Source of the DNA: a virus
Virus record (IMG/VR): IMGVR_UViG_3300027963_000039
Reading direction: 5' to 3' (one strand)
DNA length: 64,000 bases
Shown here: piece after piece, positions 61,631 through 63,395 of the stretch
How the letters are laid out: every line of letters starts with the position of its first letter
How positions within the stretch are numbered: the stretch's first letter is position 1
Notes under the pieces: model-generated
Seen by the model: the letters and a program-made list of their open reading frames with translations, nothing else
The model's database searches: none
Told to the model about the DNA's origin: nothing
Translations under genes and position numbers: made by a program

Positions 61631-62179
61631 ATGAAACTGAGCATAATCGGATGTCCTGAAAAGAAAAAATTTCGTCCCTACGTTAAAAAAGCAGCATTAT
61701 TCTATGCTGATCTGTTGTTCACACAAAAAATGACGGAAAATCTTTTTTTGCAAATCAAATTTAATAAAAAAATTGATGTGTTTGGATATGCATCAATTAC
61801 TGGTTATAATGATAGTGCTAAACCTAGAGATTTTTTAATTGAACTAAATCCAAATGTTGCCGCTTATGATATATTGAAAACGTTAGCCCATGAAATGGTT
61901 CACGTAAAACAATATGCATATTCAGAAATGGATGAAAAAGGATTAAGATGGAAGGGATCACATGTTGATCCTTCAAAAACAGATTATTGGACTGAACCGT
62001 GGGAAGTAGAAGCTTATGGTTTAGAACCTGGAATGTTTACAAAGTTTGCAGTTAAAGAAAAATTGTGGACAGTATTTAAAAACGTTACTAATCCAAATGA
62101 TATAATAAAGCCGGAACCTTTAGGGTTCTTGGAAGAAACTGTTGTTGCAGAAATACAACAAATAGAAAATAATGCTTGA
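61631..62179 (+). CDS. Zincin-like metallopeptidase domain protein
   Basis: TLAHEMVHVKQY and PWEVEAY. Confidence 0.75.
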   Translation: MKLSIIGCPEKKKFRPYVKKAALFYADLLFTQKMTENLFLQIKFNKKIDVFGYASITGYNDSAKPRDFLIELNPNVAAYDILKTLAHEMVHVKQYAYSEMDEKGLRWKGSHVDPSKTDYWTEPWEVEAYGLEPGMFTKFAVKEKLWTVFKNVTNPNDIIKPEPLGFLEETVVAEIQQIENNA

Positions 62180-62482: not shown

Positions 62483-62559
62483 GTGGGTGTGCAGCTGAAT
62501 GGTTAGGCACCGGATTGCAAATCCGTATTATGCAGGTTCGAGTCCTGTCACCCACTCCA
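62483..62559 (+). tRNA. tRNA-Cys(GCA)
   Basis: Loop TTGCAAA, U discriminator, CCA. Confidence 0.88.
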
Positions 62560-62596: not shown

Positions 62597-62664
62597 TTGA
62601 CAATTTTACTGGTTCGTGTACAATACGTACTATCGATTGAGAAATCAATCATTGTTCTTTAAAA
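62597..62664 (+). promoter_or_regulatory. tRNA array promoter 2 with boxB-like hairpin and boxA-like element
   Basis: TTGACA-16 nt-TACAAT; GATTGA-GAAA-TCAATC 62635-50; TGTTCTTTAAAA 62653-64. Confidence 0.65.
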
Positions 62665-62680
62665 GTTTGATGCAGTATGT

Positions 62681-62756
62681 GCTCGGTTCATCTAGTGGCC
62701 TAGGATAGTGCCCTTTCACGGCATTCACACCGGTTCGAATCCGGTACCGAGTACCA
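62681..62756 (+). tRNA. tRNA-Glu(UUC)
   Basis: Loop CTTTCAC, ACCGG-TTCGAAT-CCGGT, CCA. Confidence 0.92.
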
Positions 62757-62949
62757 TATTAAAGTTTATTGCGTTGACAAGTCCATTAGGGGATTGTTCA
62801 AGATAACGGGACGGCGGTCACCGGTCTATGAACACTCATGATAGCCGTTACGAAGGTGATGGGTTGCTTGTTTGTAATGACCGCATACAGCGCAGGATCG
62901 CAGCCTGTGAAAAAGAAGTATGCAAGGTTCGCAATAAATTTTAATATGG
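62757..62949 (+). ncRNA. Putative structured ncRNA A closed by a ~20-bp stem
   Basis: 62754-62773 complements 62930-62949 (one G-U); GC-rich interior with several helices. Confidence 0.6.
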
Positions 62950-62970
62950 TATAATAATGCTTCATAAATT

Positions 62971-63047
62971 GCCTCGGTGACGGAATTGGTATACGTGTTG
63001 GTCTTAGAAGCCAAATTTTGAGAGTTCGAGTCTCTCCTGAGGCACCA
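62971..63047 (+). tRNA. tRNA-Leu(UAG), short variable loop
   Basis: TTGGT-CTTAGAA-GCCAA; 77 nt; ACCA end. Confidence 0.88.
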
Positions 63048-63139: not shown

Positions 63140-63146
63140 AATTGAA

Positions 63147-63240
63147 AGAGTTTTTGGTTGTTCTAAAAAGCAAGGCCACGCTGAAAAGCAAAAAGGTTGA
63201 GCGGAGAACATTAAATGGAGACGACCGCTCCAGCCACTCT
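63147..63240 (+). ncRNA. Putative structured ncRNA B (multiway junction, possible pseudoknot)
   Basis: AGAGT/ACTCT ends; GGTTGAGCGG/CCGCTCCAGCC stem; GTTCT/AGAAC loop complementarity. Confidence 0.4.
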
Positions 63241-63395
63241 ATTTTATAGTTAAGTGTTATCAGGGTATCGTGTATGGACGCATACACTATGCGGGCCTAA
63301 CTGTGCGAGGAACAGGTCCTGAGATAACTGCTATTCGCTTGTCAGTATTAGCTATATTGTTGACAAATCGGCACGATAACACTTAACTATAAAAT
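63241..63395 (+). ncRNA. Putative structured ncRNA C closed by a perfect 21-bp stem
   Basis: ATTTTATAGTTAAGTGTTATC 63241-61 is the exact reverse complement of 63375-95; internal hairpins. Confidence 0.65.

Follow-up and report, generated by a model that had tools for sequence, protein, structure and literature searches.

A structured non-coding RNA, divergent within its previously uncatalogued family, closed on the CCA of tRNA-Glu in the tRNA array of a T4-like phage

The window, a stretch of 64,000 nt taken from IMG/VR virus record IMGVR_UViG_3300027963_000039 and the source of all positions given below, belongs to a T4-like phage, with a major capsid protein that shares 65% identity with its counterparts in Methylophilales phage Melnitz and Pelagibacter phage Mosig (Kyanoviridae). 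It also carries terminase, gp46-like and dCMP deaminase genes, and its last 1.8 kb are occupied by a + strand tRNA array in which ARAGORN detects 11 tRNAs. A tRNA-Cys(GCA) at 62485-62554, which scores 42.8 bits with the Rfam tRNA model, was missed by ARAGORN. Sigma-70-type promoters are found at 62176 and 62597, and the second of these stands at the head of a short unit with the following features.

62597..62624, + strand: sigma-70-type promoter, TTGACA, 16 nt, TACAAT, with 11 of 12 matches, for the unit leader, tRNA-Glu, RNA A
62681..62756, + strand: tRNA-Glu(UUC), with an encoded CCA at 62754-62756 that is common to the stem of RNA A
62754..62949, + strand: RNA A, the 196-nt family member (nhmmer with the family profile, 56.4 bits, E 6e-17)
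62928..62955, + strand: promoter-like site, TTCGCA, 16 nt, TG-TATAAT (extended -10), overlapping the 3' arm of the closing stem P1

The promoter and leader segment upstream of tRNA-Glu is kept in six other loci (L002, L050, L064, L070, L075 and L076). Within the leader (62625-62680, from the promoter to tRNA-Glu), a GATTGA-GAAA-TCAATC hairpin with a GAAA loop is followed by a boxA-like TTGTTCTTTAAAA, an arrangement that resembles rrn boxB-boxA. The promoter-like site at 62928-62955 is placed for tRNA-Leu(UAG), which lies just downstream at 62971, and it is not kept in L001, whose tRNA-Leu gene is a different one and which lacks this -10. A TTGACA at 62775 was considered as an internal promoter and rejected as unconserved, since L001 has TTGATA and the other family members TTACC at this place. 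Further along the array, a spacer of about 100 nt (63140-63240) that is kept in L001 contains a hairpin, GAGCGG/CCGCTC, is closed in acceptor-like fashion by GGTTG/CAGCC with a terminal CCA, and may be a degenerate tRNA-like RNA.

RNA A, at 62754-62949 on the + strand, is a genuine gene for a structured non-coding RNA of 196 nt. The + strand folds with an energy of -72.1 kcal/mol (z -6.59, with none of 200 shuffles as good), as against only -50.7 kcal/mol for the - strand. The first-pass annotation had proposed here an RNA structure acting on the + strand and closed by a long stem that runs into the tRNA-Glu CCA, and this description stands. All of the strings on which it was based are found in their places, and the closing stem consists of 20 bp (62754-62773 with 62930-62949; 19 Watson-Crick pairs and one G.U), the first three bases of which are the CCA of tRNA-Glu (62681-62756). 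The choice of strand is borne out both by the folding energies and by the excess of G.U over A.C in P1 that is described below. Two 38-codon open reading frames on the + strand (62828-62944 and 62838-62954) were rejected as genes, having no ribosome-binding site and overlapping covarying helices.

Relatives of RNA A are not readily found by sequence similarity. With nhmmer, the window sequence alone recovered only the 97%-identical relative L001, and blastn of RNA A and of one typical member gave no match in 50,697 records of cultured phages. The family was reached by way of the upstream ORF, through which 80 loci were fetched, and very stable spacers were seen directly after tRNA-Glu and tRNA-Gln, all of which start CCATAT... 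and end ...ATATGG. Two of these loci, L002 and L078, were aligned with RNA A by eye to give a degenerate pattern, and it was only in this way that homologues were found. The pattern recovered 73 IMG/VR stretches, which reduce to 49 distinct full-length sequences of 196-242 nt; the alignment of these 49 members, A2, is the basis of the family profile. A pattern, CCATTAGGNGATTGT, was abandoned as too unspecific, with only one of 117 new loci being true, and that one a second cut of the L001 contig.

The A2 profile finds 72 copies in viral loci, amongst which the copy in the window is the most divergent full-length one (about 56 bits) and also the sole match within the window. A scan of metagenomes added 18 further loci, including a 149.7-kb contig (L298) with a copy identical to that of the window, and three further metagenome variants fall in the window's own sub-clade. 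Amongst bacterial and archaeal genomes, taken as one genome for each of 185,579 prokaryote species, there were 25 pattern hits, close to what chance alone would give, and the family profile matched none of them. All of the copies found come from uncultured freshwater T4-like phages related to Kyanoviridae, and these carry a single copy per genome, as seen in the complete 168-kb genome G003 and likewise in the window.

The position of the element is also highly constrained, with 65 of 76 copies having the CCA of tRNA-Glu(UUC) as their exact start, and two that of tRNA-Leu(UAG). In L089 the element lies 15-16 nt past a tRNA and retains a CCA of its own, which means that the CCA is part of the element as well as of the tRNA. 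The junction GAA was considered as a specifier for tRNA-Glu and rejected, as it is kept in the copies behind tRNA-Leu and altered in the window.

The absence of RNA A from catalogued families, another point made at the outset along with its not being a tRNA, was confirmed by searches with Rfam 15. Only tRNAs are found in the window at the gathering threshold, and when the search of RNA A was relaxed to E 10 the best non-tRNA match was ceN54 at 15.7 bits (E 2.2). Seven typical family members gave no Rfam hit at E<=1. The family to which RNA A belongs, as a divergent member, consists of structured non-coding RNAs of about 200 nt and had not been catalogued before. The elements of RNA A in the window are as follows.

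62754..62773, + strand: 5' arm of P1, 20 nt, with near-invariance across the family in the outer 10 bp
62777..62781, + strand: 5' strand of P2, ACAAG, pairing with CTTGT at 62867-62871; CCAAN/NTTGG in the family
62783..62787, + strand: 5' strand of P2a, CCATT, pairing with GATGG at 62858-62862; CCAGT/GCTGG in the family
62795..62834, + strand: P3 carrying P3a, P3 being 62795-62803 with 62825-62834 and A 62828 bulged
62807-62812 with 62817-62823, + strand: P3a, loop GGCG (G-N-C-G in the family), in which six of six pairs covary
62835..62843, + strand: junction J3/4, CTCATGATA in the window and ACATGAAG in the family, with invariant or near-invariant columns
62844..62857, + strand: P4, GCC/GGT around an 8-nt loop with a conserved (C/A)CGA
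62874..62878, + strand: single-stranded GTAAT junction, GTAATG being invariant in 49 of 49 sequences
62879..62929, + strand: domain II, consisting of P1a, P6 and P5
62879-62882 with 62926-62929, + strand: P1a, with covariation
62883-62888 with 62918-62923, + strand: P6, with covariation
62891-62896 with 62904-62909, + strand: P5 hairpin with a 7-nt loop, usually nGACGnn in the family
62930..62949, + strand: 3' arm of P1, with covariation

The conserved fold is fully nested, with P1 closing a three-way junction that has two domains. Domain I is made up of P2 and P2a, both nested long-range helices, leading to the P3/P3a-P4 junction, and domain II is formed by P1a-P6 carrying P5. The invariant junction nucleotides are AGGU, CAUGAAG and GUAAU. 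Both the P3/P3a architecture and domain II (the GUAAU junction, P1a, a bulge, P6, P5 and a variable P7) recur in independent single-sequence folds of nearly all of about 40 distinct members, across many different sequences.

Covariation in support of this structure is strong, both family-wide and within the window's own sub-clade. Family-wide it was measured on a MAFFT alignment that was not fitted to any structure, in which the helices have 94.6% of cells paired as against 81.3% in shuffles (none of 500 reaching the observed value), with a covariation score of 0.402 as against 0.152 when shuffled. When partners were slid by 1-3 columns as a control, pairing dropped to 34-42%. There are 27 pairs with double changes, 20 of them in the interior and seven in P1. 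The long-range helix P2 provides a clear example, with ATAAG/CTTAT in L297 and 23 double changes at the family column 28/156, whilst P2a appears in the variants CTAG/CTAG, TCAG/CTGA, CCAT/ATGG and CCAC/GTGG. The weakest helix is P4, with 78% of cells paired across the family. The window's sub-clade, represented by the seven sequences of alignment A3 and a curated structure of 64 pairs, is 98.4% paired and has eight double-change pairs, at P1 position 6 (U-A to A-U), in P2 (C-G to U-A), in P2a (U-A to C-G), at four pairs of P3, where one nucleotide is bulged on the 3' strand, and at one pair of P6. Across the 49 members P1 is 99.7% paired, with 922 Watson-Crick, 55 G.U and 1 A.C cells, and this imbalance between G.U and A.C indicates that the structure works on the + strand only, which is the strand of the tRNA.

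Four internal helices had been proposed from the window sequence, and these fared differently. TGTTCA/TGAACA belongs to P3 and GCATAC/GTATGC is P6, and both have compensatory changes in the window's sub-clade. In contrast, TAACGG/CCGTTA and GCGGTCA/TGACCGC are complementary only in the window sequence itself, are broken by uncompensated changes in the relatives L296 and L297, and have bases that fall in P3a, P4 and P1a. With the loss of these crossing helices from a nested fold, the pseudoknots that had been implied are unsupported. Two other candidate helices were rejected: a 5'-region hairpin UACC/GGUA given by RNAalifold, the bases of which covary far better as parts of two nested long-range helices, and the helix CCGUUAC/GUGAUGG of the single-sequence minimum-energy fold, which has an uncompensated change in L296. 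An alternative pairing between positions 12-18 of the P1 5' arm and the invariant GUAAUGUG is found in 97% of cells, with mostly transitions at its variable positions, one double change, and a compensated change for the window's one transversion (position 13). This suggests a transient co-transcriptional helix, as a lead only, the count being no better than in shuffles.

The closing stem is not confined to family A. Every tRNA 3' end in the loci was scanned for a stem of at least 14 bp starting at the CCA, which gave 119 distinct elements with 44 interior clusters. These clusters include family A (in three sub-clades), the family of a second element of the window at 63241-63395, a family of the CATTTGTTTTGC type, numerous 60-130-nt singletons and plain hairpins of 35-51 nt. 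Despite the variety of interiors, the outer stem is near-identical across elements, with the form CCAUAU[A/U]AAA... / ...UUU[C/U][A/U]AUAUGG. Plain hairpins consisting of the stalk only are found behind tRNAs in L075, L145, L297 and L310, and L104 has retained P1 and lost the family-A interior. About 95% of stalks start at a tRNA CCA, and the others follow another element in tandem, or else come after a tRNA that ARAGORN missed. Counted in loci that were chosen independently of the RNA, stalks follow 11 of 16 tRNA-Gln, 8 of 17 tRNA-Glu and 7 of 23 tRNA-Gly(UCC) genes. They also follow occasional Phe, Ala and Lys tRNAs, and of about 330 others not one has a stalk. In 1.6 Mb of phage DNA every stalk lay within a tRNA array, and so did all three of those in a complete genome.

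Several of these elements have features of their own. The element at 63241-63395 is stalk-closed by a 21-22-bp AT-rich stem around an interior of about 110 nt, and has internal hairpins with compensatory changes (GTTATAG/CTATGAC, GTCACAG/CTGTGAC and GTGTATG/CATACAC). It is cleanly missing from L001, and the same type is found directly after the tRNA-Glu CCA in the distant phages L074, L075 and L076 as well as in L053. At L074:5922-6193, and in L075, L076 and L080, the stalk hairpin of tRNA-Gln is directly followed by a conserved ORF of about 60 codons, the GGAGG ribosome-binding site of which overlaps the end of the stalk 3' arm. In the stalks of tRNA-Gln, tRNA-Lys and tRNA-Ala, position 8 is often a conserved A.C mismatch and position 16 a U.G pair (CCAUAUAAAAACACAUUA / UAGUGUGUUUCUAUAUGG), independently of the interior and at many loci (for example L070:11655, L074:9025 and L099:9032). 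A tandem stalk-closed RNA starting TCATTTGTTTTGC often comes after family A, as at L078:12640-12763 and about 15 other loci, and starts CCATTTGTTTTGC when it is directly behind tRNA-Glu, as in L080.

The explanation that is moderately favoured, partly by analogy with known processing systems, is that RNA A is an excised trans-acting RNA with a processing stalk of the RNase III type. Transcription of the + strand would start from the promoter at 62597, with RNA A as the second gene of a unit that runs from promoter through leader and tRNA-Glu(UUC) to the RNA. P1 would then form a double-stranded processing stalk to be cut by the RNase III of the host, after which exonucleases would trim tRNA-Glu to its CCA, and the excised stable RNA would act in trans through its conserved core on a protein or RNA partner. 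A 20-bp duplex enclosing a stable RNA is the geometry of the RNase III processing stalks of rRNA operons, and P1 has this geometry, being a duplex of about two helical turns formed from the flanks of the mature RNA. RNase III also reportedly takes part in the processing of the T4 tRNA cluster, according to work of Pragai and Apirion in 1981. Cleavage of P1 by RNase III is put forward here as an analogy only.

The same stalk surrounds unrelated interiors or none at all, and is therefore most simply seen as a common handle for a trans-acting processing factor. The near-invariance of the outer 10 bp of P1 exceeds the known needs of E. coli RNase III, which hints at a factor that is sequence-specific. 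In four complete phage genomes carrying the RNA there is no gene for an RNase III, dsRBD or Ro60 protein, so any such factor would be that of the host. No partner, target complementarity or ligand of RNA A was identified. A broader proposal, which goes beyond RNA A and is offered tentatively, is that freshwater T4-like phages use the CCA-anchored stalk as a general plug-in cassette, with one conserved double-stranded handle and a single processing factor making it possible to express diverse structured RNAs from tRNA operons and to exchange them from one operon to another. In this scheme the most elaborate cargo would be family A, a trans-acting RNA whose fold and activity are both new, such as a decoy or inhibitor of host tRNA-directed defence, a new ribozyme or a ligand-binding RNA.

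The stalk could act instead in cis on tRNA maturation or stability. This alternative holds that the stalk alone is functional, as a 3' hairpin that directs or protects the maturation of the phage tRNAs Glu, Gln and Gly-UCC, and that the interiors are passengers. The plain stalk-only hairpins, the loss of the family-A interior in L104, the occurrence of one stem sequence around 44 unrelated interiors and the marked preference for these particular tRNAs all fit such a role. The family-A interior, in contrast, is under strong purifying selection for structure, with its invariant junctions and 20 double-change pairs, which a passenger would not show. This alternative is considered unlikely, and roles in cis and in trans are not mutually exclusive.

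A role for RNA A as a self-cleaving ribozyme that would generate the 3' end of tRNA-Glu in cis is improbable. The HDV-like theta ribozymes, which adjoin gut-phage tRNAs and have been proposed to act in their 3' maturation (PMC10879173), set a precedent, and RNA A, too, is located immediately 3' to a tRNA and combines a compact core with numerous unpaired nucleotides that are invariant. An encoded CCA is rare among theta-linked tRNAs, however, at only 4.5% (PMC10879173), whereas here every tRNA has one. Moreover, no Rfam ribozyme family matches at E<=10, and the CCA and the would-be cleavage site are inside a continuous helix. A ribozyme is also made less likely by the same stem closing dozens of unrelated interiors as well as plain hairpins.

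The inverted terminal repeats and variable interiors might also bring to mind MITE-like mobile DNA, with 20-bp repeats targeting tRNA 3' ends, and the presence of the neighbouring element at 63241-63395 in the window and its clean absence from L001 could be read in the same way. This is very improbable. All copies are at tRNA ends, with a single family-A copy per genome and none elsewhere in the 168-kb genome; the arms change by compensation and with G.U on a single strand, and the interior covaries as an RNA; no transposase was seen, and there is no target duplication beyond an extension of the palindrome. A Y-RNA-like molecule with a terminal stem docking a Ro60/Rsr-type protein, which the long stem formed from the 5' and 3' ends and the tRNA linkage could recall, is disfavoured and very improbable, as no TROVE-domain gene (PF05731) is found in four complete carrier genomes, although the domain was matched in two control genomes, and no YrlA or Y_RNA model hits the element.

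Phage tRNA islands are already known for enigmatic RNAs, such as T4 species 1 and 2, GOLLD and ROOL, none of which has an assigned function. The present family adds a small and tractable case, of about 200 nt, with a covariation-backed structure, once per genome and mostly at the tRNA-Glu CCA, and it belongs to a wider set of RNAs with one common stalk. It opens testable questions as to how phages cut structured RNAs and tRNAs from one precursor, and what role the non-tRNA RNAs in the arrays have. The conserved stalk could, moreover, be a natural scaffold for the expression of RNA.

The closest known systems by position are the T4 genes rnaD and rnaC (species 2 and 1; NC_000866 71053-71171 and 70908-71046), which are small stable RNAs from the tRNA cluster of a T4-type phage, where they lie directly 3' of a tRNA, tRNA-Arg. 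Unlike RNA A, the T4 RNAs have a tRNA-like T-arm and acceptor-like ends and are without a 20-bp stalk. The GTTCGAATC T-loop, present in rnaC, is missing from RNA A, and nhmmer with the family profile gives no hit to the T4 region at E<=10, such that the resemblance is positional only.

GOLLD (RF02032) and ROOL are, like RNA A, ornate structured RNAs within phage tRNA islands, but at 400-800 nt they are larger and have a different fold, whereas RNA A has about 200 nt and is fused through its stalk to the tRNA CCA. Neither the GOLLD nor the ROOL model matches RNA A. In L094 the two kinds of RNA are found in the same tRNA array, with a GOLLD RNA at 1381-1845 (RF02032, 214 bits), itself with an embedded tRNA, about 750 nt downstream of a family-A copy at 400-626 to which the GOLLD model gives no hit.

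The theta ribozymes resemble RNA A in being structured RNAs immediately 3' of a phage tRNA. RNA A is about three times larger, lacks an HDV-like double pseudoknot and lies next to a tRNA that encodes its CCA; the HDV model gives no hit on it, its covariation-supported fold is nested, and the encoded CCA is base-paired.

The RNase III stalks of rRNA operons and of T7 early RNA share with RNA A a duplex of about 20 bp formed from the flanks of a mature RNA, inside a polycistronic stable-RNA transcript with an rrn-like promoter and leader. They differ in that the putative processing stalk of RNA A starts inside the tRNA CCA and is conserved in sequence in its outer half. Finally, MALAT1 mascRNA and the tRNA-miRNA units of MHV68 are tRNA-linked RNAs that are released by tRNA-processing enzymes. 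These are eukaryotic RNase P/Z systems, and their tRNA-like part is not a working tRNA, but with RNA A they have in common a tRNA-shaped module as the processing handle for an adjacent structured RNA.
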